Shown: positions 4,332-42,660, counted from the stretch's first letter. The stretch is 64,000 nucleotides of DNA from an uncultured Kineothrix sp. (GCA_964519385.1 CAZFLR010000007.1:16045-80044), one strand, 5' to 3'. Notes: generated by a model not told the origin, from the sequence alone. Program-made: numbers and translations.

Positions 4332-4340
4332 CTCTATGAT

Positions 4341-4368
4341 ATTCTACCATATATAGTAAAAAAGGCAA
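4341..4368 (-). promoter_or_regulatory. SigA-type promoter candidate for the sortase/surface-protein operon
   Basis: Minus strand reads TTGCCT-N16-TAGAAT with a TGG extension (TGGTAGAAT), about 50 nt upstream of the sortase ATG. Confidence 0.45.
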
Positions 4369-4399
4369 CAGTTAACATAAGGTTTTTTCATCACTTTTC

Positions 4400-4428
4400 T
4401 TGCATTTGCCATTCTTCCGTGTTATATT
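4400..4428 (+). promoter_or_regulatory. SigA-type promoter candidate upstream of the FliD-related gene
   Basis: TTGCAT-N17-TATATT, about 110 nt upstream of the ATG at 4536. The RBS is GAAAGGAGGG. Confidence 0.45.
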
Positions 4429-4535
4429 TAGTTTATGAAAACAGCTTTATTGTGCCCCAGCTGAGATTACGACACGGATTGTCAACTCTATAATCTCTCA
4501 AGCAGTGCAATTTCAAGGAAGAAAGGAGGGCTCTT

Positions 4536-5849: not shown

Positions 5850-5867
5850 ATGTTTTTCGCACATTAC

Positions 5868-5900
5868 AAAAAGGAGTGTTTTTACAACACTCCTTTTTTC
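5868..5900. terminator. Bidirectional rho-independent terminator between convergent genes
   Basis: AAAAAGGAGTGTT-tttac-AACACTCCTTTTTT: a perfect GC-containing stem flanked by an A-run and a T-run. Confidence 0.8.
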
Positions 5901-5926
5901 TGTCTGTTCATTCGTTCTTCCTGTTT

Positions 5927-6943
5927 CTATTTTCCAAACTCCCGGTACAAAAACTCAAGACTGAGCATCTTATCATCCACATAATAATCCGCGTTTGGTT
6001 TTCCCATATGGAGCTCGTGATACTTCACGCCCCAGTCTGCCATCTGTTTACCAGTCACCTCGCTCCAGTCAATTCCCGTCACATACCCTCTTGCAGTGAA
6101 AAGCACAATTCTGTTTCCCCAGTCATAAAGTTGGTTGATAATGCGAATCATCTTCTCATTCGGCTCTGCCTGCGCATAATCCAAATCTTCCCTCTTCATC
6201 GCAATCACACCGTCTATGTCGAACACAAACTGCTGACCGCCTCCCATAATCTTCATAAGATCTGCCACACGCGAGAAATCCGACTCTGTATCCACATCAT
6301 ACATTTCCTTCATTTCAAAGCCTTTAATTTTCTTCCCTGTCATGGAATGATACTGCGTCACCACACGCGGACGAAGGAGATCCACATTCCCGTTTTGAAT
6401 ATAAGTGGCCGGAAGTGCCTGACGAGGCATATTATATGCTTCCGGAATATCCTTCATCAAAGGATCCAGATCCCCGTTTTCCTTCAAATACCACATTTTA
6501 TGAGGAACCACCTCATTCTTCTTCACACTACGGACAGAGTCTACTGACTCGTCCTCCAACATCATCTCAATCATTGTGTCGATATCTGCCGGATCACGGT
6601 ACGGATAGGTCGGGCGAAGATGTACCACTATATCCGGAACATATCCCTCTTCCTTCTCCAAAAATCCGAGTGCATGTTCAAAAACCTCGATGTCAAGAGC
6701 CGTGTCCGTGGCATACTCAGCCGGGCGGATAAACGGTGTCTCCGCTCCGTACTCACGTGCAATCGCCGCATACTCCTCACTGTCGGTTGATACAACAATT
6801 CGATTAATATATTTTGAAGCCTGCGCGTGCTCGATGGAATATGCCATCATCGGTTTCCCGTTTATTTTTCGGATATTCTTATTTACCACGCTCTTAGAAC
6901 CGCTTCGCGCCGTAATCAAGGCCAAAATTTTTTTCTCTGCCAT
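5927..6943 (-). CDS. Acylneuraminate (CMP-ulosonic/nonulosonic acid) cytidylyltransferase-family domain fused to a C-terminal HAD-superfamily phosphatase-like domain
   Basis: 338 aa. N-terminus ALITARSGSKSVVNKNIRKINGKPMMAYSI is the NeuA/KdsB-type signature. The C-terminal part has FVFDIDGVIA (HAD motif I) and GKPNADYYVDDK (HAD motif IV-like). Confidence 0.75.
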   Translation of the reverse strand: MAEKKILALITARSGSKSVVNKNIRKINGKPMMAYSIEHAQASKYINRIVVSTDSEEYAAIAREYGAETPFIRPAEYATDTALDIEVFEHALGFLEKEEGYVPDIVVHLRPTYPYRDPADIDTMIEMMLEDESVDSVRSVKKNEVVPHKMWYLKENGDLDPLMKDIPEAYNMPRQALPATYIQNGNVDLLRPRVVTQYHSMTGKKIKGFEMKEMYDVDTESDFSRVADLMKIMGGGQQFVFDIDGVIAMKREDLDYAQAEPNEKMIRIINQLYDWGNRIVLFTARGYVTGIDWSEVTGKQMADWGVKYHELHMGKPNADYYVDDKMLSLEFLYREFGK

Positions 6944-7049
6944 GACAAATCCTCACTTTCGTTTTCGCTGCCCTCATCATAGCACACGTTGACTGCTTTG
7001 TGGAGATTTATTTTCTCGCACCCGCGAAAATCCCGGACAGCCGGTCGTC

Positions 7050-8666
7050 TTACAGCGGAATATTTCCATGCTTTTTACACAGCGACTCCGCTTCCTTGTT
7101 TTTCAGTCCTTTAAGGGCCTTAAGCAGGGCTCCGCGTGTCTCTTCCGGTTTTATCACCTCATTCACATATCCTCTGGCTGCTGCCACGTAGGGATTCAGA
7201 AAACGCTCATCATACTCTTTCATGCACTGTCTGCGCATAGCCTCCGGGTTCGATGATTCCTTAATTTTACGCCTGAAGGCAATATTGACTGCCCCCTCTG
7301 CCCCCATCACCGCTATCTCTGCAATCGGCCATGCATAAACAATATCTGCTCCCATCTCCTTGGAATTCATTGCAATATATGCTCCGCCGTAAGCTTTTCG
7401 CATAATCAGGGATATTTTGGGCACGGTCGCTTCTGAATATGCATAGAGAACCTTTGCACCATGACGGATGATTCCGTTATGCTCCTGCTCCTTTCCCGGC
7501 AAAAATGCCGGAACATCAATCAACGTCACAATCGGAATATTAAAACAGTCGCAGAACCGGATAAAACGTGCCATTTTATCCGAAGCATGGTAATCTATGG
7601 CTCCGGCCAGATAATTCGGCTGATTGCACACAAAGCCTGTCACCTCTCCATCCATCCTCGCGAAGCCGATAACAACATTTCTCGCAAAGTCCTTTTGCAC
7701 CTCAAAAAAGCTCCCCTTATCCACCACGCACTCAATAACATCCTTTACATTGTAAGCACGCCTTGAATTATCAGGCACAATATCCCGAATCTTCCAGGAA
7801 CGGTCCTCCCCTCCCGGAAGAACCTTCCTGCCAATCTCTTCTACCCGGCTTACCACACCGGCTGCCACTCCCATAGTCGCGCTAATCTCTTCCATTTGGG
7901 GAGGGTTTTGATTGCAATTAGAAGGGAGATAGGAGAGAAGCTTCCGCACTCCGAGCAGACAGTCTCTTTCATTTTTGTAAGTGAAATGAGATACACCGGA
8001 CTTAGAGGCATGTACCTGCGCGCCTCCCAGCTCCTCCACGGAAACCTCCTCGTTGATTACGGTTTTTACCACGTTTGGTCCGGTAATAAACATCTTCGAT
8101 GTTTCCTCCACCATGAAAATAAAATCACAGATTGCCGGCGCGTAGCACGCCCCTCCGGAACACGGTCCCAAAATCACGGCTATCTGTGGAATCATTCCGG
8201 AAGCCTTCGTGTGACGTAAAAACATTCCGCTGTATCCGCTCAGAGACGAAATTCCCTCTTCAATACGGGCTCCGCCACTGTCATTGATACAGATGAACGG
8301 TGCCTTCATCGCCATAGCCATGTCCTGAATACGGCAGATTTTAAACGAATGATATTCACCCAGCGTCCCTCCGATGACCGTAAAATCTTCTGAGGCCACA
8401 AATACCTGCCTTCCTCCAATCGTCCCATACCCCGTCACGACACCGTCACCGGGAACTCTTTTTTTATCCAGATCAAAATCATCAATTCTCGACTCTATCA
8501 TCCCGTCCACTTCCACAAAGCTGTCCGCATCCAGAAGAATTTCAATGCGCTCGCGCGCTGTCAGTTTTCCCTTCTTATGCTGTGCCTCTATCCTTGCTCT
8601 TCCGCCTCCGAGACTTACCCTTTTCCTTCTCTCATCCAAATCATTCACTGCTTCATTCCAATTCAT
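7050..8666 (-). CDS. Acyl-CoA carboxyltransferase (methylmalonyl-CoA decarboxylase alpha / propionyl-CoA carboxylase beta family)
   Basis: Strong family pattern: GKLTARERIEILLD, DGVVTGYGTIGGRQVFV, FTVIGGTLGE, GGARIEEG, GPCSGGACY, PRISLIMRKAYGGAYIAM-type blocks. I place the start at the ATG of MNWNEAV (8666) because AAAGGAG lies 7 nt upstream. The track start at 8702 has no RBS. Confidence 0.85.
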   Translation of the reverse strand: MNWNEAVNDLDERRKRVSLGGGRARIEAQHKKGKLTARERIEILLDADSFVEVDGMIESRIDDFDLDKKRVPGDGVVTGYGTIGGRQVFVASEDFTVIGGTLGEYHSFKICRIQDMAMAMKAPFICINDSGGARIEEGISSLSGYSGMFLRHTKASGMIPQIAVILGPCSGGACYAPAICDFIFMVEETSKMFITGPNVVKTVINEEVSVEELGGAQVHASKSGVSHFTYKNERDCLLGVRKLLSYLPSNCNQNPPQMEEISATMGVAAGVVSRVEEIGRKVLPGGEDRSWKIRDIVPDNSRRAYNVKDVIECVVDKGSFFEVQKDFARNVVIGFARMDGEVTGFVCNQPNYLAGAIDYHASDKMARFIRFCDCFNIPIVTLIDVPAFLPGKEQEHNGIIRHGAKVLYAYSEATVPKISLIMRKAYGGAYIAMNSKEMGADIVYAWPIAEIAVMGAEGAVNIAFRRKIKESSNPEAMRRQCMKEYDERFLNPYVAAARGYVNEVIKPEETRGALLKALKGLKNKEAESLCKKHGNIPL

Positions 8667-8701
8667 ATTTCTGCTCCTTTTACATTTTGCTTTGCCCTTC
8701 A

Positions 8702-8750
8702 AATACTTTGACTTTCAAAGTATTATACAAAAAAATATTCCCCATTGCAA
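8702..8750 (-). promoter_or_regulatory. SigA promoter (TTGCAA-N17-TATAAT) with a 9-bp inverted repeat overlapping the -10/+1 region (candidate operator)
   Basis: Minus strand: TTGCAA (8745..8750), 17-nt spacer, TATAAT (8722..8727). This is followed immediately by, and overlaps, AATACTTTG-N5-CAAAGTATT (8702..8724), 36 nt upstream of the carboxyltransferase ATG. Confidence 0.55.
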
Positions 8751-8787
8751 GTAGCAACAGGGATATTTCTTATTTTTCATTCTGTTT

Positions 8788-9906
8788 TCAGGCAAGTTCC
8801 TGTGCCGCCATATCCAGCGCGGCGCGGATTACCTTATCCATATCGTAGTATTTGTACTGTCCCAGGCGACCGCCAAAAATGACATTTTCCTGCTCACCGG
8901 CAAGTGCTTCATACTTTGCATAAAGAGCACTGTTCTTCTCATCATTCACGGGATAATACGGCTCGTCTCCCCTCTTCCATTCTACGGGATATTCTCTGGT
9001 AATCACCGTCCCGTCACCTTTTCCGAATTCAAAATGCTTATGCTCAATAATCCGGGTATACGGAATCTCTCTCTCTGTATAATTGACGACCGCATTTCCC
9101 TGATAGTTATCTGTATCCTTTATATACTCACTTTCAAAACGCAGCGAACGGTAAGCCAGCTCCCCATAGCAATATTCAAAAAACTCATCAATCATGCCGG
9201 TATAGAGTATCTTGTCATATGTCACCGGCTGTTCCTTGGCACGATTGTCTTCCAGAAACTCCTGATAGCTGATGCCTGTCCTCACCGGTGTATCTCCGAA
9301 CAGCTTCTCTACAATCTGTGTGTAGCCCCCGACAGGGATTCCCTGATAGCGGTCATTAAAATAATTGTTGTCATATACAAAGCGGAGCGGAAGACGGTTT
9401 ATGATAAACGAAGGGAGGTCTCTGCAGTCCCTTCCCCACTGTTTTTCGGTGTAACCCTTAACTAACTTCTCATAAACATCGGTTCCGACAAGCGAAATGG
9501 CCTTTTCCTCCAGATTATCCGCCTCTGTAATTCCCGCTTCTGCAATCTGCTCTGCGATTTTAGCTTTTGCCTCGGCCGGCGTTTTCACATTCCACATACG
9601 GCTGAAGGTGTTCATGTTAAACGGCAGATTATATATTTCATTCTTATAAACAGCGACCGGTGAATTTACATAATGATTAAAGTCCGCAAGTGCACTCACA
9701 TAGTCCCACACCTCTTTATCGGATGTATGAAAAATATGTGCCCCGTACTTATGGACAGAAATATGGTTCTGCTGCTCAGTGTAGATATTTCCTGCTATGT
9801 GGTCTCTTTTTTCAATCACATAGCAGCTCTTTCCCGCTTTTCTCATCTCGCAGGCAAACACGGCACCGAACAGACCTGCCCCTACAATTAAATAATCATA
9901 CTTCAT
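8788..9906 (-). CDS. glf: UDP-galactopyranose mutase
   Basis: 372 aa. FAD fold MKYDYLIVGAGLFGAVFA, then IAGNIYTE, HKYGAHIFHT, and the C-terminal GRLGQYKYYDMD block typical of Glf. Confidence 0.9.
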   Translation of the reverse strand: MKYDYLIVGAGLFGAVFACEMRKAGKSCYVIEKRDHIAGNIYTEQQNHISVHKYGAHIFHTSDKEVWDYVSALADFNHYVNSPVAVYKNEIYNLPFNMNTFSRMWNVKTPAEAKAKIAEQIAEAGITEADNLEEKAISLVGTDVYEKLVKGYTEKQWGRDCRDLPSFIINRLPLRFVYDNNYFNDRYQGIPVGGYTQIVEKLFGDTPVRTGISYQEFLEDNRAKEQPVTYDKILYTGMIDEFFEYCYGELAYRSLRFESEYIKDTDNYQGNAVVNYTEREIPYTRIIEHKHFEFGKGDGTVITREYPVEWKRGDEPYYPVNDEKNSALYAKYEALAGEQENVIFGGRLGQYKYYDMDKVIRAALDMAAQELA

Positions 9907-10280
9907 GCATTTTCCCTCTCCAGTATAATGGAGGATACCTGATAAAAAATATCCAGAAACGGAAGTATGCCCTCTTCAAGTGCCTGTGCTGTTTTCAGAT
10001 TGTCCTTTGCACTGAGTCCATCATTGAGAAGCTGTACTTTTTCTTCTATTCCGTCTTTGTTCAGAATCTCTTCTTTTTCATTAATCATACCCATCGTCGC
10101 GTTTACAATCTCAATGACAAAGTTAATTCCGTCGATAAGCTGATTCAAAAAATCTATCGTATCTTCTTTTTCTTCACCACGAAGCTCCGGTAAAATTTCT
10201 TTAATGGCAGGAACAAGTTTTTTCACATATTCCACTCCTGTTTCCAAAGCTTCCAACTGCTGCCTTCTGATATCTTCCAT
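9903..10280 (-). CDS. Small acidic all-helical protein of unknown function, translationally coupled to glf (ATGA overlap)
   Basis: 125 aa, no recognisable motif. The 4-nt start/stop overlap with glf argues that it is translated. Confidence 0.6.
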   Translation of the reverse strand: MEDIRRQQLEALETGVEYVKKLVPAIKEILPELRGEEKEDTIDFLNQLIDGINFVIEIVNATMGMINEKEEILNKDGIEEKVQLLNDGLSAKDNLKTAQALEEGILPFLDIFYQVSSIILERENA

Positions 10281-10354
10281 GATATACCCCGCTTTCCGTT
10301 CAATGTATCACATTTTCAAACAAATATTGTGCACACATGTACACTATATCATAT

Positions 10355-10381
10355 ATATCGACCTTTTGCGAAAAAAATATA
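10355..10381 (-). promoter_or_regulatory. SigD-like promoter candidate for the 125-aa gene/glf operon
   Basis: Minus strand TATA-N15-GTCGATAT (3/4 and 7/8 to TAAA-N15-GCCGATAT), about 70 nt upstream of the ATG at 10280. Confidence 0.3.
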
Positions 10382-10461
10382 AGAGGCATTTGTTGTTTTT
10401 TTTCACGGTGTCGATTATACTTAGTACATATTAAAAAAGCCGAAAATCAAGGAGAAATGGC

Positions 10462-11523
10462 GTGAATCCTTTTATTTCTGTCTGCCTGATTGGGAAAAAT
10501 GAAGAAAAATGCATAGAGCGTTGTCTGAAGGAGCTTCAAAAGCTTGCTCTTCCCGTGATTTATACAGACACCGGTTCTGCCGACCGCACTGTGGAGATTG
10601 CCCGTCAATATACCGGTCACATTTATCACTTTGAGTGGTGCAATGATTTTTCCAAAGCCAGAAATTTCTGTGCCATGCAGGCACCGACTGACTGGATATG
10701 GTTTCTGGATTGTGATGAATATGTTACAAAGGCAGACCTTTCACAGCTTTCTGCCTTCTGCCGTGATGAAAATGCCCCGCTTATCGGCACCATTCGTCAG
10801 AAGGATTTATATACGCTGAACGGCGAGCAGACATTTACCACGACCAGGCTTGGAAGAATCTACAACCGGCAGTATTACGAGTACAGCGGCAATGTGCACG
10901 AACATCTCACCTCTCACAGGCCGGATATTCCGTGCCACTATTTCGACTTAGAAATTTCCCTTGACCATGACGGTTACAGCGATCCCGATGTATTGGCAGA
11001 TAAATGCAGGCGCAACGCGGAGCTTCTTCTTGAAGCTCTTGCCCGCAAAGCGGATCCTTACTTATATTATCAGCTCGGCAAATGCTATTCCACTCTCAGT
11101 AAGCCGGAGCTTGCTGCCGAAGCTTTTTCCAAAGGTCTCTCCTTTGACCTTGATCCTACACTTTTCTATGTGCAATCGATGGTAGAAGCCTATGGCTACT
11201 GCCTTCTGGAGCTCAAACAATATGAAGCTGCCCTCTCTTTTGAAGGAATCTATGACAGCTTTGCCGTCAACGCAGATTTCGTTTTTTTAATGGGACTCAT
11301 CTATATGAATAACGCCCTTTTCGACCGGGCAATCGGAGAATTTAAGAAAGCTGCTTCTTTTTCCTCAAGTGTTGTTGACGGTGTGAACAGCTATCGCGCT
11401 TTTTATAATATCGGAGTTATATATGAATGCACGGGACATACCCGTGAAGCTGTTTTAAACTATCGCAAATGCAACAGCTATCCCCCGGCACTCAAACGAT
11501 TGGAGGTACTTACCGGTGGCTGA
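10462..11523 (+). CDS. GT2-family glycosyltransferase with C-terminal TPR-like repeats (paralog A)
   Basis: 353 aa. GTG start 7 nt after AAGGAG. GT-A N-terminus ISVCLIGKNEEKCIERCL and DxD-type LDCDEY. The helical-repeat C-terminus (YYQLGKCY, NIGVIYECTGH) is collinear with the ORFs at 16037 and 17119. Confidence 0.85.
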   Translation: MNPFISVCLIGKNEEKCIERCLKELQKLALPVIYTDTGSADRTVEIARQYTGHIYHFEWCNDFSKARNFCAMQAPTDWIWFLDCDEYVTKADLSQLSAFCRDENAPLIGTIRQKDLYTLNGEQTFTTTRLGRIYNRQYYEYSGNVHEHLTSHRPDIPCHYFDLEISLDHDGYSDPDVLADKCRRNAELLLEALARKADPYLYYQLGKCYSTLSKPELAAEAFSKGLSFDLDPTLFYVQSMVEAYGYCLLELKQYEAALSFEGIYDSFAVNADFVFLMGLIYMNNALFDRAIGEFKKAASFSSSVVDGVNSYRAFYNIGVIYECTGHTREAVLNYRKCNSYPPALKRLEVLTGG

Positions 11524-12556
11524 AATCAGTATCATTATTCCATGCCATAATGTTGAAAATTACATAATGCGCTGCTTTGAATCCCTGAAAAATCAGACCT
11601 TCGGACTTGACCGGCTGGAGCTGATTTTCGTGGATGATGCTTCCACGGACAGCACCTGGGAAAAATTACTTGTCATTGAACAATCTGCTCCGGACTCCGT
11701 GTGCATCATTCAGCTTCCGGAAAATCTGCGTCAGGGAGGAGCCAGAAACATCGGACTCTCTCATGCGACCTCTCTCTATATCGGCTTTGTCGATGCTGAT
11801 GACTGGGTTGAGCCGGATATGTATGAATGCCTTTACCGTGCTGTGACGGAAGATGACTCAGACCTTGCCTTCTGCCGTCATATACGTGACAACGGGAAGA
11901 AATCCCTTTACCTGAAAGAGGAAGAGAAAACAACGCGCAAGCAAAATCGAAAGCTCCGCATTCTCTCGGACGCACAGCGGACTGATTTCATCGTCTCCAA
12001 CGTCATCGGCTACGGTGTATGGGACAAACTGTTTCGCAAAGATTTCCTTCTGGAAAACGAAATTTTCTTTCCCGAACACCTCACCTATGAGGATATTTAT
12101 TTTGGTTCTCTGGTATATCTGTACGCAAAGCATGTCAGCCTTGTGGAACGCCGGCTTTATCACTACTATATTAACGAAGACTCTACCGTGCTCGGACGTA
12201 ATCAGGTACACCACAAGGATATTTTTCCGGTAAATTATCTGAAATGGGATGCATACGAAAAAAGAGGTTTTCTTTCAAAGTATCGTGAAGCACTCGAATT
12301 TGATTTTATTATGTCCTATTACATGGCAGGCTTCAAAATTCTCGCGCTCCGCTTTGACGAAATACCATACGAAGATTTCATGAAATTAAAAACCGGAACT
12401 CTCGAAAGAGTTCCGGATTATCAGCAAAATACATACTGTCATTCGCACATTCCCGAAATCTATAAATTACTCCTTAATCTTCTGAAATACTCTGTCGGCC
12501 CCTCCGAGCTCTCACAGGTTCAGAAGGTGTTCAAAAGCTATCACAGGCTGACCTGA
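11516..12556 (+). CDS. GT2-family glycosyltransferase
   Basis: 346 aa. ISIIIPCHNVENYI, FVDDASTDST, GGARNIGL, FVDADDW. GTG start overlaps the previous gene by 8 nt. Confidence 0.85.
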   Translation: MAEISIIIPCHNVENYIMRCFESLKNQTFGLDRLELIFVDDASTDSTWEKLLVIEQSAPDSVCIIQLPENLRQGGARNIGLSHATSLYIGFVDADDWVEPDMYECLYRAVTEDDSDLAFCRHIRDNGKKSLYLKEEEKTTRKQNRKLRILSDAQRTDFIVSNVIGYGVWDKLFRKDFLLENEIFFPEHLTYEDIYFGSLVYLYAKHVSLVERRLYHYYINEDSTVLGRNQVHHKDIFPVNYLKWDAYEKRGFLSKYREALEFDFIMSYYMAGFKILALRFDEIPYEDFMKLKTGTLERVPDYQQNTYCHSHIPEIYKLLLNLLKYSVGPSELSQVQKVFKSYHRLT

Positions 12557-13643
12557 GCAGTCCCTCGCATGGCTTCAGATTCGGATTTGTATTGACAATC
12601 ATCTGCAAAAGGCTTCCGGAAATCCGGGAGTCTTTGTAATATGAAAGTTCCTGCGCCGTCACATTACCCGCAGCTATCTTGCCCGCAATCATACAAATCA
12701 GCCTGTAGTGTCTGACAAGAAGATTTAAATCCTTTGCAATGGCAAGCAGCCCCTCAGTTCCCGCCGTCAGCTCCTGTTCACACACATAGAGCACACGGAA
12801 CATATCCGCAAGTTCGCCACTCAAATCAGAGGCTGAAAGCATAAGATCCGGCCGTTCTTTCATCGCACTCCGAAACAGCTCCAGTGCCTCTCTTACGTCA
12901 TCAATGTTCCCCCTTGCTAACTTCTTGCACAGTTCCTGCTTCAGTTCAATCGTTTCCGCCTTCTCCTGCGTCAGTCCCACCGGTGCCTCGTATATGCTCA
13001 GTCCCCGGCTTTTTACCCACACATATAACAGCTGTTCCGACAAAAAGCCGAATACCCGCCTGTGATATGCATCATAGTCATCCGGATGAATCCGTTTCTC
13101 CACCCGGTCAAACACAGAAAACAGCCACTGTTCGTAGTCGCAAAATTTCTCCCTGGAAGTGACAAACATATTTCCGCTGTAAACCTTTCGCCCTGCAATC
13201 ACTTCTTCAAACACCTTATAATCTTCCGGATACAATTCCTTTAAAACCTCTCCCGTTACCTGAAGGTCACGGATATTATGCGCCTGCGCGTAAATCTCAT
13301 AATACGAAACCGGATGATAGACGGCTTTGGCCAAAATCACATCATGCTCCTTCAAAATCCGCTCATAAGAGTCCCCATCCAAAAGCCTTCCCTCATCATT
13401 CAGAAAGAACCGTCTATAATGGCAAAGACCGAAATAATCACCCTCCGTCACATTATGCGCCGCCCAGTATAAGCCCGTCAGTTCGCTATAATAACAATTT
13501 TTCACGGAGATGTTATCTCCCGTGTTATCTCCTGTGTAACCGAGGTCTTCCCTACCTTCCCTGCCGACATGCAAGGGAATGTAAACAGGATCCTTTGGCA
13601 CATCAAACGCTTTGTGGGTCATAACAAAAATTTTCGTGCTCAT
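12531..13643 (-). CDS. DUF4422-family protein (putative glycosyltransferase, often found next to glf)
   Basis: MSTKIFVMTHKAFDVPKDPVYIPLHVG, YSELTGLYWAAHN and GLCHYRRFF match the DUF4422 pattern. Start set at the ATG of MSTKIF (GAGGTGG upstream), not the GTG at 13655. The 3' end overlaps the convergent GT2 gene by 26 nt. Confidence 0.8.
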   Translation of the reverse strand: MSTKIFVMTHKAFDVPKDPVYIPLHVGREGREDLGYTGDNTGDNISVKNCYYSELTGLYWAAHNVTEGDYFGLCHYRRFFLNDEGRLLDGDSYERILKEHDVILAKAVYHPVSYYEIYAQAHNIRDLQVTGEVLKELYPEDYKVFEEVIAGRKVYSGNMFVTSREKFCDYEQWLFSVFDRVEKRIHPDDYDAYHRRVFGFLSEQLLYVWVKSRGLSIYEAPVGLTQEKAETIELKQELCKKLARGNIDDVREALELFRSAMKERPDLMLSASDLSGELADMFRVLYVCEQELTAGTEGLLAIAKDLNLLVRHYRLICMIAGKIAAGNVTAQELSYYKDSRISGSLLQMIVNTNPNLKPCEGLLRSACDSF

Positions 13644-13739
13644 ATACTCTCCCACCTCATCTTATCGTGCATTTATACGATAAATATATTATAATTACTA
13701 TAATTATATCAATTATACCATATTACAGGAGTCAAAAAC

Positions 13740-15065
13740 ATGGATTTTGTCAGCCAATTTGAACACACTCTGGAACAGACCATAAACCGGGGACTTCTTA
13801 CAGAGGCAGAACAGTTGCTCTCCGCTTTTAAGACCACCGGTCTCGGATATACAAGGAAGCTCTATGCTCTGATTAACCTTCTCCGGCGCATGGAAGCTCC
13901 CTTTGATTTACCAATGACTCCGGCTGCGCCGGAACACCCTTACCGCATCGTTATATTCCGGACAGGAAACTACATTTTGGACTACATAGCCGAGCGTTTT
14001 TCTTCGTTTTTTAAAGGACAGGGCTGCTCCATTTTATTTTTCGACCCGGCCGATTATGCAGACAGCACCCAAAGGTTTTTTACTTTTACTAAAGACGGAA
14101 CGGATGCGGCTTTTTTCTTTAACAATGTCGGGCTGTCTCAGACCTTTGAGGACGGCTCTTCTCTCTGGGAATCCCTGAACATCCCGTGCTACGATTTTCT
14201 GGTGGACCACCCGATGTATTACGCTGACTCCCTCGACAACCCTCCGTGCAATACCACTCTTCTTTGTGCCGACCGGACACATACCGAATATGTACGACGT
14301 TTTTATACCAAAATTAAAAACGCCCTCTTCCTTCCTACCGGAGGATGTCAGGACTCCTCTCCTGTCACGGACTGGAACAAGCGCGATATCGATGTACTTT
14401 TTATCGGCAGCTACAAATATCATGCATCTTATACAGAGGATGAACTTGACCGACAGATTATTGCGTACCTGAGCAAAAACACGACACAGACCTTCGAGCA
14501 GGCAGTGGAATACTGTGCCGGCAAGCTTCACATTTCCGACACACCTCTCAAAACACTGATAGAGTTACACCGTTTTACCGAAACGAACCTGACTGCACTT
14601 TACCGGAAAGCTATTATGGAAGACCTTGTATCTGCAGGCATTATGGTTCACGTTTACGGAAATGGCTGGGAGCAATCCGGTCTGCAGAACCATAATAATT
14701 TTATTCTTCACAGTCCCGTCAGCTTTGAGGAAGGCATTCGGCTCATGTCTCATACCAAAATCCTCCTTAATCATATGGCGTGGTTCAAAGACGGTTCAAG
14801 TGAACGTATTTTTAATGCAATGATGCAGGGCGCGCTCTGTATCACTGACAGCAGCAGCTATCTGGACACCATTCTGTCCGATGGTATCAACTGCTGTATC
14901 TATCAGCTTAAGGACTGTCGTTCAGCCCCTCTTTCACGGACTGTAAAAATGCTTCTTTCATCCCCGGAAAAAGCAGAAAAAATCGCCTCAGACGGACAAA
15001 AAACCGCCATGGAGCATACTTGGGAGAAGCATCTGCTTTTGATGACAGAACCGCCGCCAGTATGA
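13740..15065 (+). CDS. CgeB-like GT-B fold glycosyltransferase-family protein (DUF3880/Glyco_trans_1_2-like)
   Basis: 441 aa. The C-terminal half (VHVYGNGWE, GSSERIFNAMMQGALCITD, PEKAEKIASDGQ) follows the CgeB/GT1-like C-domain pattern. Confidence 0.65.
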   Translation: MDFVSQFEHTLEQTINRGLLTEAEQLLSAFKTTGLGYTRKLYALINLLRRMEAPFDLPMTPAAPEHPYRIVIFRTGNYILDYIAERFSSFFKGQGCSILFFDPADYADSTQRFFTFTKDGTDAAFFFNNVGLSQTFEDGSSLWESLNIPCYDFLVDHPMYYADSLDNPPCNTTLLCADRTHTEYVRRFYTKIKNALFLPTGGCQDSSPVTDWNKRDIDVLFIGSYKYHASYTEDELDRQIIAYLSKNTTQTFEQAVEYCAGKLHISDTPLKTLIELHRFTETNLTALYRKAIMEDLVSAGIMVHVYGNGWEQSGLQNHNNFILHSPVSFEEGIRLMSHTKILLNHMAWFKDGSSERIFNAMMQGALCITDSSSYLDTILSDGINCCIYQLKDCRSAPLSRTVKMLLSSPEKAEKIASDGQKTAMEHTWEKHLLLMTEPPPV

Positions 15066-15117
15066 TATAATATCTATGGATTATTCCATCAGATTCTTGC
15101 ACAAAGGAGTACCTTGT

Positions 15118-16008
15118 ATGAAAATTCAGTATTTTAACGGCGGACTCGCCAATCAGGTATTTCAATATATATTTTACCGCTACGCACAGCTTTCCTGCGG
15201 CGAAAAGGACATCTGGCTTTTAGACGATTCCTTCTTTTTCTTTAAAGAAGAGCATAACGGATATGAGCTTGAAAAAGTATTCGGTCTCAAACCCAATCTC
15301 TTAAGCCGGCAGTTTTCGCCCGATGCATGGAAGGTTTTCGTGGACAACCGGAAAAACCGGATAGGAACTGCTCAGACAATGCTGAACATGGGATTCGATG
15401 TCCGGATGATTGCCGAGGCTGCAAACTATAAAACAGACAATCCTTTTCACGGAACGGTACATCAGATTCCCTGCAACGAATACCATCCGGAGATTCTACA
15501 GTTTCCGGGCGAGATTGTATACTACTTCGGCTACTGGATTAACAAAAGCTGGTTTGCTGCCTATAGGGAACAGTTTTTAAGCGAATTGTCCTTTCCGCCG
15601 ATTCTCGATGAAAAAAATATGCGATACGCTTCAAAGATTAAATCCTCTCTCTCCGTCGGCGTACACATCCGGCGCGGAGACTTCATCCGTCTCGGCTGGA
15701 ATATCGACACGAAAATTTATCACAACTATGCAAAGCTGCTCACTGATAGTTACCCTGAGCTGACTTTCTTTGTATTTTCCGATGATATTTCCTGGTGCCG
15801 TGACAATACGGAACAGCTCGGGCTTTCCCTTGCACACGAAACTGTTTTTGTAGAAGGAAACGTTGAAGGCTCTAATTATATTGACCTGCAACTGATGACC
15901 ATGTGCAAAGGATTGCTGATGTCAAACAGTTCCTTCAGCTACCTTTCTGCACTGTTGAATACCAATCTGCAGTTTTATATCAATCCGGTTCCTTCCCGTA
16001 AGATTTAG
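15118..16008 (+). CDS. GT11-family alpha-1,2-fucosyltransferase
   Basis: MKIQYFNGGLANQVFQY, VGVHIRRGDF and MSNSSFSYL are the GT11 signature motifs. Start moved to the ATG preceded by AAAGGAG. Confidence 0.85.
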   Translation: MKIQYFNGGLANQVFQYIFYRYAQLSCGEKDIWLLDDSFFFFKEEHNGYELEKVFGLKPNLLSRQFSPDAWKVFVDNRKNRIGTAQTMLNMGFDVRMIAEAANYKTDNPFHGTVHQIPCNEYHPEILQFPGEIVYYFGYWINKSWFAAYREQFLSELSFPPILDEKNMRYASKIKSSLSVGVHIRRGDFIRLGWNIDTKIYHNYAKLLTDSYPELTFFVFSDDISWCRDNTEQLGLSLAHETVFVEGNVEGSNYIDLQLMTMCKGLLMSNSSFSYLSALLNTNLQFYINPVPSRKI

Positions 16009-16036
16009 ACTTTTTCCGAAAGGAGTTCAGGCAGAC

Positions 16037-17095
16037 ATGATACCTGTTTCTGTATGTATAATTGCAAAAAACGAAGAAAAAAACATAGAAAAATGCCTCC
16101 GGGCTCTGAGCCGCTACCCTTTTGAAATCGTTGTGGCGGATACCGGCTCCACTGACCAAACGTGGGAAATCGCTTCCCGTTATGCCGATAAGGTACTTGA
16201 CTTTAAATGGGTCAATGATTTTTCTGCAGCGCGCAATTTTTCCATACAGGCTGCAACCCATGACTGGATTCTCGTCATCGACTGTGACGAATTCGTTGTG
16301 AATCTCAATTATGAGGAAATGCAAAGCCTCATGCAGAAATATCCTTATGCACTCGGGCAACTGACACGGGACAATATATGTTATGATAAAAATCACGATA
16401 TCCTTCACTCAACCGATCTGGTCGAACGGCTTTTTGACCGCAGGCTGTATGAATATGAGGGAACTATTCACGAACAGCCTGTACGCAGGGACAAAACTCC
16501 TGCCTGTGCTTTTACCTTCCCTTTGTACATAACTCACACAGGATACGGCGGAAGTGAAGAAGAAATTTTAGCCAAATCCGAGCGGAACATCCGTATGCTG
16601 ACAGAAGCACTGGAAAAAGATCCCGAAGACCCTTATCTGTTCTACCAGCTTGGCGAGAGCTATATGCTGAAAAATGATTACGAGAACGCATACAACTATT
16701 TCGACCGCGGTTTTTATCTCGATGTCGATGAAACACTCGAATATGTACAGCGCATGATGATTTCTTACGGATACAGCATGCTCTATACCGACCGGATTGA
16801 GAAAGCCTTGACGCTTGCCAATGTTTACGATTCATTTGCAAACAGTGCAGACTTTATCTTCCTCATGGGAAATATCTATCTGAAGGCGCGCATAAATGAC
16901 AGGGCCTTACAGGAATTTCTCCGTGCAACCACTGTTTCCAGACATTTCGATGAAGGAACCAATTCCTATCGCGCTTATCACAACATCGGCTGCATTTACG
17001 AGGCCTACGGTCATTATGAGGAGGCGCGCCGATACTACCTGAAGGCCGGCGATTTTTCCATGTCCGTAGAACGGCTGAAAAATCTGCCGCAATAA
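16037..17095 (+). CDS. GT2-TPR glycosyltransferase (paralog B)
   Basis: 352 aa. VSVCIIAKNEEKNIEKCL, ADTGSTDQT, NDFSAARNF, IDCDEF. Collinear with paralogs A and C along the whole length. Confidence 0.85.
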   Translation: MIPVSVCIIAKNEEKNIEKCLRALSRYPFEIVVADTGSTDQTWEIASRYADKVLDFKWVNDFSAARNFSIQAATHDWILVIDCDEFVVNLNYEEMQSLMQKYPYALGQLTRDNICYDKNHDILHSTDLVERLFDRRLYEYEGTIHEQPVRRDKTPACAFTFPLYITHTGYGGSEEEILAKSERNIRMLTEALEKDPEDPYLFYQLGESYMLKNDYENAYNYFDRGFYLDVDETLEYVQRMMISYGYSMLYTDRIEKALTLANVYDSFANSADFIFLMGNIYLKARINDRALQEFLRATTVSRHFDEGTNSYRAYHNIGCIYEAYGHYEEARRYYLKAGDFSMSVERLKNLPQ

Positions 17096-17118
17096 TCGTC
17101 ACAAGGAGGATTTTACCA

Positions 17119-18177
17119 ATGGTACCTATTTCCTTATGTATTATAACCAAAAACGAGGAGGCAAATTTGGAACGCTGCCTTTCCTGTATCAAGGACTATC
17201 CGTTTGAAATTATCATTGCAGATACAGGCTCCACCGACCGCACAGTCGATGTTGCACGAAAATACACTGACAAAATTTATCATTTTGACTGGATAAACGA
17301 TTTTGCTGCTGCAAGGAATTTTTCTATTTCCAAAGCATCCAACGACTGGATTCTTGTACTGGATGCCGACGAGTTTGTGTATGAGCTTGATCTGAATGAA
17401 ATTTATCGTCTGATTGAGCAGCATCCGGCCGGAATCGGCAGACTGCTGAGAAGCTCGGAAGATATTGCACAGACCACCTCCGTCGATCGCGTGGAACGGC
17501 TTTTCAACCGTAAAGTGTATCACTACGAACGTCCGATTCATGAACAGGTCCTTCCGATTGACAAGTCTACGCCTTTATACACATATCCCATACCACTCGC
17601 TGCGGAGCACTCCGGGTATCTCGGAACACGGGAAGATGTCAACCGAAAGGCCATGCGAAATCTTGAAATCCTGCTCGCATCCGAAAAAGATTACCCGGAT
17701 GCCTACACTTACTATCAGATAGGACAGTCCTACTATATTATGAGCAACTGGGAAAAAGCCTGCGCATACTTTGAAAAGGCCTTATCCTTCCCGTTAAATC
17801 CCGAAGCTGAATATGTGCGTGTCATGGTAGTCAACTACGGATATTCTCTTTTGCATGAGAATCGGCTCTCGGATACTGTAAAATTCTTTGAAGAATATTA
17901 TCAATATTTTGAAACCTATGCCGACTATGTTTTTCTTGTCGGATACATATATATGAAGACGGGTAATTACATGAAATCGGCTCTCAACCTTATCAAGGCC
18001 ACTACACTTACCGATTTTTTGGTGGAGGGTACCAACAGCTTTCTGGCCTATTACCACCTTGGAATTGTCTACGAAATGATTGGAAATTCAGAGATGGCCC
18101 TCATGTTCTACGAGAAGGCCGGCAATTACCCAAAAGCCCTTGAGCAAGTAGAAAGACTGAAAAAAACTCCGGAATAA
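17119..18177 (+). CDS. GT2-TPR glycosyltransferase (paralog C)
   Basis: 352 aa. ISLCIITKNEEANLERCL, ADTGSTDRT, NDFAAARNF, LDADEF. TPR-like C-terminus. Confidence 0.85.
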   Translation: MVPISLCIITKNEEANLERCLSCIKDYPFEIIIADTGSTDRTVDVARKYTDKIYHFDWINDFAAARNFSISKASNDWILVLDADEFVYELDLNEIYRLIEQHPAGIGRLLRSSEDIAQTTSVDRVERLFNRKVYHYERPIHEQVLPIDKSTPLYTYPIPLAAEHSGYLGTREDVNRKAMRNLEILLASEKDYPDAYTYYQIGQSYYIMSNWEKACAYFEKALSFPLNPEAEYVRVMVVNYGYSLLHENRLSDTVKFFEEYYQYFETYADYVFLVGYIYMKTGNYMKSALNLIKATTLTDFLVEGTNSFLAYYHLGIVYEMIGNSEMALMFYEKAGNYPKALEQVERLKKTPE

Positions 18178-18192
18178 AACCGGAGTTTTTTT
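18161..18192. terminator. Bidirectional terminator at a convergent gene junction
   Basis: AAAAAACTCCGG-aataaaa-CCGGAGTTTTTTT, overlapping the last codons of the plus-strand gene and abutting the minus-strand stop codon. Confidence 0.75.
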
Positions 18193-19360
18193 AAATAAGA
18201 TTCAGCATTTTTTCGATTTGCTTTTCATAAGAAAGACACTCTTTTACCTTTTGATATCCGTTAGCTGCGATTCTCCGGCGTTCTTCATCATGCTCCAGAT
18301 AATAAGCAGTCAGTCGTTCCAGGTCATCTATACTTTCATAGTACACAAAATCCACTCCCGGCTCAAAATATTCCAGGAAATCACTTTGGAAGTTCGTAAG
18401 AAGAAAACCTCCGCAGCCCAAAATATCAAGAGCCCTCAAAGGCATCCCCGTATGTATGCTCCTGAGCGAAATATTCAAATTGATTTTTGCACATTTCATC
18501 GCATATGGTGCCTGTGTATAGTAATCCAGCCTTCCCATATTTCTTACACGTTCCAGTCCCGGCGTTGCTTCCGGTGTAAACAGTTTAACCTCATGTGCTT
18601 TTGACAGACGGTCCAGTATCTCCCATCTTTCCATCGCCGTCACCTTACGCGCCAGAAAATAGTTGGCAAAAACCCATTCCACAGTCTCAATACCATCGCC
18701 GTGTTCCGTCACCGGGCACACCTTTCGCATCGCCTCAATAATCTCGGGAGTCAGTGCATCCTGAAGAATATCCATTCCGTATATATTTTTCTGCGCTCCC
18801 ATCAGTCCGAACAAATATCCTCTTGTATAATCGTCAAGCTTCTCCAGATGCCGGAACATATGCTGCTTTGTCTCGCTGTACATGGAGCCGATAAATGTAA
18901 TGTCACTATCATATTCTTTCTTCTGTTTTTGAGAAGGTATCATACGATCATAATCCTCCACTGCAGATGCCATCGGAAGATAGTACACATGTTTTACACC
19001 CATGCCCTGAAAATTTAACGCCTCAGCACTGTCAAACAGAAAAATCCGGTTCGTCTCATAGAATACCGACTGAGAATACAGCAAAATATATGGGCTGTCA
19101 TAAACCCATGACACATATTTTACTCGACATGCCTTACAGGCAATTGCCGCCACCGGAAAATAGTTAAAGGAAAAAACAAACGCAGGTTTTTTCTGCATAA
19201 TCTCAAGTGTCAGCTTCTCCGTCAGTTCTCTGCCATTGCGGACATCCTCCGTCTCTCTCGGAAACGGAACACATTGCACCTGATATCCCTGCTTTTCAAA
19301 TTCTTTTATAATATAGTCATTTCCAAAACTTTTCCATTCTAAAAAAAGTATATTATCCAT
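18191..19360 (-). CDS. CgeB-like GT-B glycosyltransferase-family protein (DUF3880 N-domain)
   Basis: 389 aa. INLNISLRSIHTGMPLRALDILGCGGFLLTNFQ and YYLEHDEERRRIAANGY match the CgeB-family C-terminus. Confidence 0.7.
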   Translation of the reverse strand: MDNILFLEWKSFGNDYIIKEFEKQGYQVQCVPFPRETEDVRNGRELTEKLTLEIMQKKPAFVFSFNYFPVAAIACKACRVKYVSWVYDSPYILLYSQSVFYETNRIFLFDSAEALNFQGMGVKHVYYLPMASAVEDYDRMIPSQKQKKEYDSDITFIGSMYSETKQHMFRHLEKLDDYTRGYLFGLMGAQKNIYGMDILQDALTPEIIEAMRKVCPVTEHGDGIETVEWVFANYFLARKVTAMERWEILDRLSKAHEVKLFTPEATPGLERVRNMGRLDYYTQAPYAMKCAKINLNISLRSIHTGMPLRALDILGCGGFLLTNFQSDFLEYFEPGVDFVYYESIDDLERLTAYYLEHDEERRRIAANGYQKVKECLSYEKQIEKMLNLI

Positions 19361-19433: not shown

Positions 19434-20252
19434 TTAGCCAAGTAATGATAATACACCCTGGTTACTCTGGTTAGCCTGTGCCAACATTGACTGTCCTGCC
19501 TGAGCAAGGATATTGTTGTTGGAGAATCTAACCATTTCAGAAGCCATATCTGTATCACGAATCTGTGATTCAGCAGATGTTGTATTTTCTACAACGTTGT
19601 CAAGGTTCTTAATTGTGTGCTCTAATCTGTTCTGGATTGCACCAAGGTCAGATCTCTGCTGTGAAACAACCTTCAGAGCTGCTTTAATCATTGTGATTGC
19701 TTTCTGTGCATTGACATCTGATGTACCTCCTACGGAAATACCTGTGATACCAATACCTGCTGCACTCATACCTGCGATAGAGAATGAGATAATCTGATTA
19801 GCTTCTGCACCAACCTGAAGACCTTTTTTAGTAAATGTTCCATCAAGAAGATTCTGCTCGTTGAATGTAGTTGTTGAAGCTACACGGTCGATTTCAGATG
19901 TAAGAGCCTGAATCTCTGAGTTGATGTAAGAACGGTCTGCAGATGTCTGTGTACCGTTAGCTGCCTGAACTGCCAGCTCTGTCATACGCTGCAACATGTC
20001 ATGCACTTCTGCAAGTGCACCTTCTGCTGTCTGCACACAAGAGATACCATCCTGTGCATTGGCACTGGCCTGTGTAAGACCTCTAATCTGACGTCTCATC
20101 TTCTCTGAAATAGCAAGACCTGCTGCATCATCTGCTGCACGGTTGATTCTGTAACCTGAAGATAATTTCTCTGTCGATTTTGCCTGTACGTCTGTTGTGA
20201 TACCTAACATTCTGTTTGAGTTCATCGCTGTAAGATTGTGCTGTACTACCAT
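19434..20252 (-). CDS. fliC: Flagellin (short, 272 aa), copy 1
   Basis: MVVQHNLTAMNSNRMLGITT, LSSGYRINRAADDAAGLAISEKMRRQIRGL, and C-terminal ILAQAGQSMLAQANQSNQGVLSLLG. SD AAGGAGG. Confidence 0.95.
   Translation of the reverse strand: MVVQHNLTAMNSNRMLGITTDVQAKSTEKLSSGYRINRAADDAAGLAISEKMRRQIRGLTQASANAQDGISCVQTAEGALAEVHDMLQRMTELAVQAANGTQTSADRSYINSEIQALTSEIDRVASTTTFNEQNLLDGTFTKKGLQVGAEANQIISFSIAGMSAAGIGITGISVGGTSDVNAQKAITMIKAALKVVSQQRSDLGAIQNRLEHTIKNLDNVVENTTSAESQIRDTDMASEMVRFSNNNILAQAGQSMLAQANQSNQGVLSLLG
19529..20174 (-). repeat. Copy 1 of a 646-bp block identical base for base between the two flagellin genes
   Basis: Line-by-line comparison at an offset of 1060 nt: 19529..20174 equals 20589..21234 with no mismatch found. 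Both coding ends and both leaders differ at many positions. Confidence 0.9.
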
Positions 20253-20368: not shown

Positions 20369-20395
20369 ATATCGGAGAATTTGAAAATAACTTAA
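20369..20395 (-). promoter_or_regulatory. Sigma-28/SigD-type promoter of flagellin copy 1
   Basis: Minus strand TTAAG-N15-CCGATAT (TTAA-N15-TCCGATAT against TAAA-N15-GCCGATAT), about 115 nt upstream of the ATG. Confidence 0.75.
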
Positions 20396-20493: not shown

Positions 20494-21312
20494 TTAGCCA
20501 AGGATTGATAATACACCCTGATTTGTCTGGTTAGCCTGTGCCAACATCGCCTGTCCTGCCTGAGCAAGGATATTGTTGTTGGAGAACTTAACCATTTCAG
20601 AAGCCATATCTGTATCACGAATCTGTGATTCAGCAGATGTTGTATTTTCTACAACGTTGTCAAGGTTCTTAATTGTGTGCTCTAATCTGTTCTGGATTGC
20701 ACCAAGGTCAGATCTCTGCTGTGAAACAACCTTCAGAGCTGCTTTAATCATTGTGATTGCTTTCTGTGCATTGACATCTGATGTACCTCCTACGGAAATA
20801 CCTGTGATACCAATACCTGCTGCACTCATACCTGCGATAGAGAATGAGATAATCTGATTAGCTTCTGCACCAACCTGAAGACCTTTTTTAGTAAATGTTC
20901 CATCAAGAAGATTCTGCTCGTTGAATGTAGTTGTTGAAGCTACACGGTCGATTTCAGATGTAAGAGCCTGAATCTCTGAGTTGATGTAAGAACGGTCTGC
21001 AGATGTCTGTGTACCGTTAGCTGCCTGAACTGCCAGCTCTGTCATACGCTGCAACATGTCATGCACTTCTGCAAGTGCACCTTCTGCTGTCTGCACACAA
21101 GAGATACCATCCTGTGCATTGGCACTGGCCTGTGTAAGACCTCTAATCTGACGTCTCATCTTCTCTGAAATAGCAAGACCTGCTGCATCATCTGCTGCAC
21201 GGTTGATTCTGTAACCTGAAGATAATTTCTCTGTTGATTTTGCCTGAACACCTGTTGTAATTCCTAACATTCTGTTAGAGTTCATTGCTGTAAGATTGTG
21301 CTGTACTACCAT
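20494..21312 (-). CDS. fliC: Flagellin (272 aa), copy 2
   Basis: The same protein as copy 1 except for a few residues at both ends (ITTGVQ vs ITTDVQ; MVKFS..GQAML..NQTNQGVLSILG). Start set at the ATG of MVVQHNL, preceded by CAAGGAGGAA. The track's N-terminal extension from 21360 has no support. Confidence 0.95.
   Translation of the reverse strand: MVVQHNLTAMNSNRMLGITTGVQAKSTEKLSSGYRINRAADDAAGLAISEKMRRQIRGLTQASANAQDGISCVQTAEGALAEVHDMLQRMTELAVQAANGTQTSADRSYINSEIQALTSEIDRVASTTTFNEQNLLDGTFTKKGLQVGAEANQIISFSIAGMSAAGIGITGISVGGTSDVNAQKAITMIKAALKVVSQQRSDLGAIQNRLEHTIKNLDNVVENTTSAESQIRDTDMASEMVKFSNNNILAQAGQAMLAQANQTNQGVLSILG
20589..21234 (-). repeat. Copy 2 of the 646-bp identical flagellin core
   Basis: See 19529..20174. 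Confidence 0.9.
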
Positions 21313-21439: not shown

Positions 21440-21466
21440 ATATCGGAGAAACTCCAAAAATATTAA
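21440..21466 (-). promoter_or_regulatory. Sigma-28/SigD-type promoter of flagellin copy 2
   Basis: Minus strand TTAAT-N15-CCGATAT, with the same geometry as the copy-1 promoter. Confidence 0.7.
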
Positions 21467-21992: not shown

Positions 21993-22373
21993 CTATTTCG
22001 CTCTCTTCATGACCTCTTTCCACGTGTCCCTCATAGAATGGAGATGTCCGTTAACTTCTTCCAATATCTCTTTATCCTTTTTAATATTCGCTTCAATCAA
22101 GCGTTCAAGCAGATATTTGTAAACTCTCTCAAAATCCTCTGCCACAGGATATTTCATATCAAGTGTAGCACGAAATTCTTCAATGATACGCTGTACCTTT
22201 TTAATATTGTCATTCGCCTTCTGTATATCCTTCTGCTCAATTCCCATAATTGCAATATTGCAGAATTTAATCGCTCCGTCATAAAGCATAAGTGTAAGCT
22301 CTGCCGGCGAAGCAGTCATTATTTTATTGGTATTATACTGCGCATATTGCGCATATGCATTAGGTAATGCCAT
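21993..22373 (-). CDS. fliS: Flagellin-specific chaperone FliS
   Basis: 126 aa. YNTNKIMTASPAELTLMLYDGAIKF and the four-helix pattern typical of FliS. Confidence 0.9.
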   Translation of the reverse strand: MALPNAYAQYAQYNTNKIMTASPAELTLMLYDGAIKFCNIAIMGIEQKDIQKANDNIKKVQRIIEEFRATLDMKYPVAEDFERVYKYLLERLIEANIKKDKEILEEVNGHLHSMRDTWKEVMKRAK

Positions 22374-42658: not shown

Positions 42659-42660
42659 AG

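Follow-up and report, generated by a model that had tools for sequence, protein, structure and literature searches.

GT2-TPR glycosyltransferase paralogs beside the flagellin genes of an uncultured Kineothrix sp.

The three paralogs

The subject of this analysis is a set of three paralogous glycosyltransferase (GT) genes that lie close to two flagellin genes in a 64,000-nucleotide stretch of DNA from an uncultured Kineothrix sp., a gut bacterium of the Lachnospiraceae (GCA_964519385.1, CAZFLR010000007.1:16045-80044); this whole stretch is called the window, and all coordinates count from its first letter. The genes, W1 (10462-11523), W2 (16037-17095) and W3 (17119-18177), are all on the + strand and encode proteins of 353, 352 and 352 amino acids, respectively, each of which combines a GT domain of family GT2 with a C-terminal region of tetratricopeptide repeats (TPR). 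W1 starts at a GTG codon with an AAGGAG ribosome-binding site 6 nt 5' of it, and its 3' end shares 8 nt with the next gene, which encodes a plain GT2 enzyme; W2 and W3 start with ATG, and W3 is the copy closest to the flagellin genes.

Regarding their relatedness, the three proteins could be aligned end to end, collinearly, with 41% identity for W1/W2, 39% for W1/W3 and 43% for W2/W3, the last pair with a BLASTP E value of 5e-105; this similarity is far above chance level. The DxD motif is intact in all of them and reads LDCDEY in W1, IDCDEF in W2 and LDADEF in W3. Pfam assigned Glycos_transf_2 to each protein at about residues 5-130/158, with E values from 1e-17 to 1e-25, and all three matched TPR_1/2/8/12 over the gathering score at about residues 195-230 and 275-340. 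No fourth full-length GT2-TPR copy turned up when the window was searched from end to end with a profile of the three.

As for the enzyme type, a profile built from W1-W3 was searched against all PDB sequences; the best match was the glycosyltransferase domain of GmaR (22ao, E 1.4e-38, query residues 1-194), followed by SunS (E 8e-32, query residues 4-262) and then ThuS, and the TPR region of GmaR (7x9r) aligned collinearly over query residues 142-338 (E 1.9e-9). The AlphaFold2 models of W1 and W2, with mean pLDDT values of 95.2 and 95.3, respectively, agree in how their elements succeed one another: first a GT-A beta/alpha core up to about residue 170, then a long helix at 174-194, and nine further helices. 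When the W2 model was compared with the PDB by Foldseek, SunS and ThuS ranked first, with matches that span the entire protein (E 1e-20, TM 0.66-0.69), and the GmaR TPR (7x9r) superposed with an rmsd of 2.8 Å over 172 columns. A preliminary description of this DNA had reported three full-length, collinear open reading frames (ORFs) of 352-353 aa at 10462, 16037 and 17119, with the same three DxD contexts, a GT-A domain followed by a TPR-like tail, and the architecture of flagellin GTs; the alignment, the Pfam matches, the models and the structural matches bear this out.

GmaR is both the flagellin β-O-N-acetylglucosamine (GlcNAc) transferase and the MogR antirepressor of Listeria monocytogenes; its 637 aa are arranged as GT, TPR, linker and antirepressor (about 400-637), and its authors proposed that the TPR recognises flagellin (PMC9638930). 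W1-W3 have much in common with this enzyme: the GT2 domain is 35-38% identical to all three over about 190 aa (E 1e-29 to 4e-37), the motifs KNEE, DTGSTD, NDFxxARN, DxD, HEQ and HxGY are shared, the TPR comes directly after the GT domain, and a short flagellin is the presumed substrate of W1-W3, as it is the substrate of GmaR. Unlike GmaR, however, they stop at 352-353 aa, right after the TPR, and have neither the linker nor the antirepressor region; moreover, GmaR acts alone and adds one sugar, whereas the DNA around W1-W3 holds three diverged copies and five other GTs. The two features that GmaR and SunS share, namely a homologous GT-A domain with the DxD and the other motifs and a TPR directly C-terminal to it, were found in W1, W2 and W3, so that, judging by sequence and models, they are minimal GT + TPR proteins of the GmaR/SunS type. 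GT2 enzymes invert the anomeric configuration of the transferred sugar; the three proteins are accordingly predicted to be inverting GT-A enzymes with a TPR, and their intact motifs suggest that they are catalytically competent.

The divergence between the paralogs is not evenly spread. Agreement between the consensus sequences of the paralogs is minimal at residues 101-126 (8%) and 152-201 (20-24%), stretches that map, in the W2 model, to the beta-hairpin 106-134, the region of strand 158-167 and the linker helix. Divergence is thus centred on the C-terminal GT-A half, which is predicted to hold the acceptor and the donor sugar, plus the linker helix; the earlier placement of it between the catalytic and the TPR parts is roughly right. 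Over the orthologs of all three paralogs (124 sequences, see below), 57 columns are invariant, among them those of KNEE, DTGSxD, WxxDFxxARN, DxDE, HEQ and HxGY; the TPR domain holds 21 of the 57, which is consistent with a partner common to all paralogs; invariant TPR residues include D198, Q204, Y244-G-Y246, D272 and N309-S310. Another 18 columns are fixed within the ortholog groups yet different between them, and most of these distinguish W1 and lie in the GT domain.

With regard to age, database searches returned 36 orthologs of W1 (55-91% identity), 42 of W2 (63-81%) and 46 of W3 (54-96%); in the joint alignment of these 124 sequences, none was nearer to the wrong paralog. A neighbour-joining tree was built from 165 copies, taken from 80 related loci of species-representative genomes, nearly all Lachnospiraceae, together with GmaR and SunS. 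Each paralog clustered with its orthologs from loci L001, L043 and L054, and W2 and W3 also with those from L002, with bootstrap values of 100 for W1, 98 for W2 and 100 for W3; all deeper nodes had values of at most 65, mostly below 30. The ortholog clades are solid. In the first, midpoint-rooted tree W1 fell in a clade of single-copy clostridial enzymes, and this placement was dropped because the deep nodes are poorly supported. The gene order is identical in L001, L043, L054, L085 and L088, and the ratio of nonsynonymous to synonymous substitution rates (dN/dS) against the close strain L085 was 0.14 for W1, 0.05 for W2 and 0.06 for W3, similar to that of neighbouring genes and indicative of purifying selection.

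Separate ortholog series, shared synteny and dN/dS values of 0.05-0.14 together indicate that the copies are ancient, intact and non-redundant, and that each has been kept by selection. The opposite view, that W1-W3 are redundant or decaying duplicates of which only one is functional, has in its favour that tandem arrays of varying copy number, such as those described below, suggest gene birth and death; however, the catalytic motifs are whole in W1, W2 and W3, the dN/dS values are low, and each paralog has dozens of orthologs at 54-96% identity, whereas the paralogs are mutually only about 40% identical, so that this view is very improbable indeed. As a separate observation, W1 evolves faster than its neighbours, with the dN/dS of 0.14 to be compared with 0.05-0.08 for other genes of the island (against L085).

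The island and related loci

W1-W3 belong to a group of genes that extends from a FliD-like gene (4536-5849, +; 437 aa; Pfam FliD_C, E 3e-9), at the far edge, to the two flagellin genes, and between these limits there are eight GTs, a UDP-galactopyranose mutase (Glf) and a cytidylyltransferase; five of the eight GTs have no TPR. Glf (8788-9906, -; Pfam GLF, E 8e-79) supplies UDP-galactofuranose (UDP-Galf), and upstream of it, in the same operon, is the gene of a DUF8042 protein of 125 aa (9903-10280, -); several loci have kept this gene in its place between Glf and a W1-type gene. The cytidylyltransferase (5927-6943, -), a CTP_transf_3 protein identified by profile match, has a weak HAD/PNKP-phosphatase-like tail.

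As for the TPR-less GTs, the plain GT2 (11516-12556, +; Pfam Glycos_transf_2, E 5e-35, no TPR match) is translationally coupled to W1, and it is followed by a DUF4422 protein with a GT111-type fold (12531-13655, -; Pfam DUF4422, E 2e-75). A Glyco_trans_1_2 (CgeB-related) GT (13740-15065, +; Pfam) opens the operon whose last genes are W2 and W3, and next to it comes a GT11-family, fucosyltransferase-type GT (15076-16008, +; Pfam Glyco_transf_11, E 2e-19), whose start is placed by gene callers at 15118 (296 aa). The fifth, a CgeB-like GT with DUF3880 and Glyco_trans_1_2 domains (18191-19360, -; Pfam), is located between W3 and the flagellins. DUF4422 has the GT111 fold of UDP-galactofuranose transferases (PMC12269835); hence the island itself probably encodes an enzyme that uses the product of Glf, namely the DUF4422 protein.

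Flagellin 1 (19434-20252, -; 272 aa), the presumed substrate, matched the NCBIfam flagellin Hag model with an E value of 5e-83 and 279 bits, which is under the curated cut-off of 352; flagellin 2 (20494-21312, -; 272 aa from the ATG at 21312) is 98% identical to it (267/272 residues). The end of W3 is 1.26 kb from the nearest flagellin start, and the central segment of the flagellin, residues 139-187, contains ten Ser/Thr. Past the flagellins, on the flagellar side of the island, the gene order is FlgN-like, FliS (21993-22373, -), FliD (22382-23986, -), FlaG, FliW, FlgL, two FlgK paralogs, FlgN and FlgM. Clustered GTs and sugar-activation genes in a late flagellar region are the mark by which this locus is recognised, from its gene content, as a flagellin glycosylation island, in agreement with the flagellin-adjacent island with two nearly identical flagellins of the preliminary description.

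Multiple copies are common among the 80 related loci. Full-length GT2-TPR genes number one in 33 loci, two in 20, three in 14, four in seven and five in five; two to five copies were found in 46/80, usually adjoining flagellin. A flagellar marker is present in 56 of the 80 loci, flagellin is within 2.5 kb in 30, and the arrays typically stop 60-430 bp from a flagellin gene. The triplet of the window is therefore one instance of a widespread multi-copy pattern and not an exception, and the weight that the preliminary description gave to three copies beside two flagellins is lessened.

Two layouts recur. In the first (A), a CgeB-like gene is followed by a variable number of GT2-TPR genes that converge on flagellin-FliS-FliD; in the second (B), the genes of the FliD-like protein, the carboxyl transferase and Glf (with or without DUF8042) diverge from one or two GT2-TPR genes, and the window combines the two. 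The accessory GT sets differ among the related loci, as expected of glycosylation islands, and the CgeB-like GT is a recurrent companion of the arrays. A minimal island was found in L053 (8736-15522), where a single CgeB-like GT gene and an unbroken run of four GT2-TPR genes adjoin flagellin with no other GT; the island has no sugar-nucleotide genes, and housekeeping genes, for AddB, a methionine ATP-binding cassette (ABC) transporter and cysteine synthase, flank it. Fusions occur as well: two GT2-TPR units make up one protein of 713 aa in L063 (14418-16556), and a GT2-TPR unit carries a C-terminal CgeB-like Glyco_trans_1_2 domain in L031 (4313-6571) and L076 (7401-10079). In a locus from Acutalibacteraceae (L071), a single copy of about 34% identity (9986-11059) has genes for NAD biosynthesis, NUDIX proteins and sugar metabolism around it, and none within 10 kb is flagellar.

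Layout B bears on the substrate, since at least one paralog, most plausibly W1, could target the FliD-like protein, FliD, FlgK or FlgL, and the sugar could be galactofuranose. The module of FliD-like gene, Glf, with or without DUF8042, and one or two GT2-TPR genes is found in about 20 loci; in one genome (L011 and L036, on the same contig) it is about 50 kb from the flagellin locus; and of the 26 copies for which the W1 profile gives the top score, 23 are near Glf, as compared with 11 of the other 37. It should be noted, though, that the profile-score margins behind this count are small, that the grouping by W1 profile has a bootstrap value of only 24%, and that the nearest non-orthologs of W1 (L018, L019 and L022; 65% bootstrap) adjoin, without Glf, short flagellins 74-77% identical to that of the window. 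In addition, the island already has a candidate Galf transferase in the GT111/DUF4422 protein, and adjacency of genes does not define a substrate. Another flagellar target is for these reasons considered improbable; the suggestion in the preliminary description that proteins such as the FliD-like one might be additional substrates gains weak support from the conserved neighbourhood, and it is possible that Glf-linked units decorate the FliD-like protein instead of flagellin. The assignment of W1 as a Galf transferase from its adjacency to Glf was set aside, given the small score margins and the non-independence of the genomes behind the profile-based association (Fisher p 3e-6), and given the GT111/DUF4422 alternative; it is kept as part of this minor rival only. 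In L011 the module (2920-11050; in the window, 4536-10280) adjoins TarJ/TarI, genes that in the window come after FlgM.

The SunS and ThuS structures raise a further option, a role outside the flagellum, in the glycosylation of a secreted peptide of the glycocin type, of a spore or cell-wall component, or of another protein. SunS and ThuS resemble W1-W3 in having a GT-A domain, a helical TPR-like domain and a polypeptide acceptor, and they are the top full-length fold matches; the CgeB-like partners carry the name of a spore-maturation protein, a wall-polymer cluster is 13 kb away, and distant homologs occur in non-flagellar contexts. SunS and ThuS differ, on the other hand, in that their acceptor is a Cys in a small secreted peptide, encoded within a cluster for ribosomally synthesised and post-translationally modified peptides, whereas the context in the window is flagellar. 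W1, W2 and W3 scored 60.7, 95.5 and 65.1 bits with the SunS family model (TIGR04195), far from the curated cut-off of 350; the neighbouring genes included none for a precursor peptide, a C39-ABC exporter or a thiol-disulfide oxidoreductase, and the Pfam-scanned ORFs of 2.0-6.9 and 8.8-31.3 kb, free of glycocin cluster genes, encode GTs, Glf, a cytidylyltransferase, a sortase and proteins of the flagellum. The glycocin reading was rejected on the family score and the gene context; the presence of flagellar genes in 56/80 related loci and the short distance between arrays and flagellin also speak against a non-flagellar role in general, which is regarded as quite unlikely.

Proposed order of action on flagellin

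The explanation that is preferred here, tentatively and with confidence somewhat short of an even chance, is that W1-W3 are cytoplasmic flagellin GTs of the GmaR type and form the protein-directed core of the island, one of them initiating a glycan and the other two extending the same glycan. Each enzyme would hold a UDP-sugar at its DxD/Mn site and would grip the unexported flagellin with its TPR arm, and the acceptor would be a Ser/Thr in the central part of flagellin that is short and exposed (about residues 139-187), or else a glycan already present there. One paralog would start, the other two would put different sugars on the protein-bound glycan, and the five TPR-less enzymes, namely the plain GT2, the Glf-fed GT111/DUF4422 Galf transferase, the GT11 and the two CgeB-like GTs, would complete the structure. 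The paralogy, the fold, the intact motifs, the purifying selection, the conserved synteny and the flagellar context are results of the analysis; that flagellin is the substrate and docks on the TPR, and which sugars are added in which order, is what we infer.

The sequential explanation is favoured because of the precedent in Clostridium difficile ribotype 027 (RT027), because of minimal GT2-TPR islands such as that of L053 and the fusion proteins, and because the divergence of the paralogs is centred on the acceptor/donor-sugar half of GT-A. In RT027, three PF00535 GTs (GT1-GT3) encoded downstream of fliC act in succession on a single glycan (PMC5207246). These enzymes and CD0240 are like W1-W3 in that they are PF00535 GTs encoded next to a flagellin gene, fliC; in RT027 the three jointly build a single O-glycan, and the content of the island varies with the lineage (PMC5207246, PMC4441256); GmaR and CD0240, for their part, both form β-O-GlcNAc on Ser/Thr of flagellin (PMC9638930, PMC4441256). 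CD0240 is the counterpart in function of the GmaR-type enzyme, and W1-W3 would be functionally like it, a likeness drawn from description and Pfam family. There are differences too: GT2 and GT3 of C. difficile appear longer, as judged from the published ClosTron insertion sites, and GT2 has a methyltransferase domain, whereas W1-W3 are minimal units of equal size.

Several points weigh against this explanation. Flagellin glycosylation in the source organism is itself a prediction from its genes, and the literature searched held no publication on Lachnospiraceae enzymes that glycosylate flagellin. More distant relatives, present as single copies in Oscillospirales and 32-34% identical, are found amid unrelated, non-flagellar genes, so that the architecture is in itself no proof of a flagellar role and it is the context that counts. 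The TPR of SunS is a dimerisation domain, and the TPR of W1-W3 could likewise serve to dimerise and not to dock. None of the paralogs is singled out as the initiator: GmaR is about equidistant from them, scoring 153, 140 and 133 bits with the group profiles of W3, W1 and W2, respectively, and the deep nodes of the tree have bootstrap values below 30; naming the initiator by similarity to GmaR was rejected, as these scores do not discriminate. Finally, more than one initiator is favoured by the five TPR-less GTs on hand for elongation, by the working rule that a TPR marks an enzyme acting on polypeptide (PMC13317340), and by Maf-1 and Maf-2, paralogous flagellin GTs of another family with different site specificity, as cited in PMC13317340.

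These last points lead to the main competitor, the model of the preliminary description, in which two or three paralogs act in parallel on the flagellin polypeptide, each with a donor or a group of Ser/Thr to itself, and the resulting primers are extended by the TPR-less GTs; it is a real possibility, although one to be put clearly below an even chance. GT2 + TPR is the accepted signature of a polypeptide-directed flagellin GT (PMC9638930) and has been used as such to find candidates in Clostridium (PMC13317340); the five TPR-less GTs could be the elongating enzymes; and the operons pair W1 with the plain GT2, and W2 and W3 with the GT11 and the CgeB-related GT, which could mean two glycans. 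The 21 TPR positions invariant across the paralogs suggest a common protein partner, as parallel initiation would have it. A further comparison is with Maf and FlmG, flagellin GTs of nonulosonic-acid systems, which, like W1-W3, join a catalytic domain to a TPR; theirs gives specificity for flagellin and for the site, and paralogs of distinct specificity are documented (PMC7591256; Maf-1 and Maf-2 as cited in PMC13317340). Maf and FlmG differ from W1-W3 in having unrelated catalytic domains and in using pseudaminic or legionaminic acid activated with CMP (CMP-Pse/Leg) as donors; no Maf domain matched in W1-W3, and neither a Maf domain nor a nonulosonic-acid pathway was found in the Pfam-scanned ORFs at 4536-6943 and 8788-19360.

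Against parallel initiation, the exposed segment of a 272-aa flagellin offers only about ten candidate Ser/Thr, and a comparison of the loci showed no correlation between copy number (1-5) and the length of the flagellin (Spearman -0.12, p 0.53). The set of flagellin-adjacent GT2 enzymes that has been studied, that of C. difficile, works sequentially, and islands with four or five copies and little else would need four or five different primers. The sequence data do not separate the sequential from the parallel model; the inclination, by analogy with C. difficile type B, is that sequential assembly on the protein fits at least as well as parallel initiation.

Concerning their significance, W1-W3 add members to the family of GmaR-type flagellin GTs in a lineage where this machinery appears to be unstudied. 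Among the antigens of the gut microbiota the flagellins of Lachnospiraceae are dominant, and they are recognised by Toll-like receptor 5 (TLR5) as ligands. In Gram-positive bacteria, flagellin glycosylation has been reported in only seven genera, with Butyrivibrio as the sole member of the Lachnospiraceae (PMC13317340). A broader and rather doubtful proposal is that gut Lachnospiraceae build strain-specific flagellin glycans by means of modular arrays in which each TPR-tethered GT2 unit of about 350 aa docks on flagellin and adds one sugar, so that the protein would act as the template of the assembly line. If this were true, the gain, loss and fusion of units, seen as one to five copies, double units and GT2-TPR-CgeB proteins, would make the surface of this immunodominant antigen more diverse, and glyco-engineering in the cytoplasm could profit from the parts of such a tethered assembly line; if, instead, they are ordinary initiators and elongators, the GmaR/CD0240 paradigm simply extends to another family. 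The enzymes themselves will not surprise a specialist, but the arrays and the fusions make the question of specificity directly testable, and they are a compact system in which to learn how paralogous protein GTs with a common docking domain divide substrate, site and sugar specificity.

Further features of the window

Upstream of both flagellin genes there is a TCCGATAT box (20369-20376 and 21440-21447, both on the - strand), which resembles the -10 element of sigma-28 promoters (-10-like CCGATAT) and is part of a longer conserved stretch; nothing convincing as a sigma-28 promoter was seen upstream of W1 or of the operon that begins at 13740. Upstream of FlgL, the two adjacent FlgK paralogs (26815-28698 and 28714-30366, -) have 627 and 550 aa.

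At the other end of the island, the carboxyl transferase of methylmalonyl/propionyl-CoA type (7050-8702, -), recognised by inspection and because L011 and L088 have carboxyl-transferase orthologs of it, is encoded between the cytidylyltransferase and Glf; the gene occupies the same spot in L088 and L011, and it is absent from the close strain L085. The CTP_transf_3 protein at 5927-6943 is a hint of a CMP-activated sugar or substituent, even though no nonulosonic-acid genes were seen.

The wall-polymer cluster (31316-50316) contains TarJ/TarI-like CDP-ribitol genes, a ribulose-phosphate epimerase and a BspA-type leucine-rich-repeat surface protein of 1159 aa, together with a Stealth protein, a GT2, a pyruvyl transferase and an FrhB-like/hexapeptide protein.

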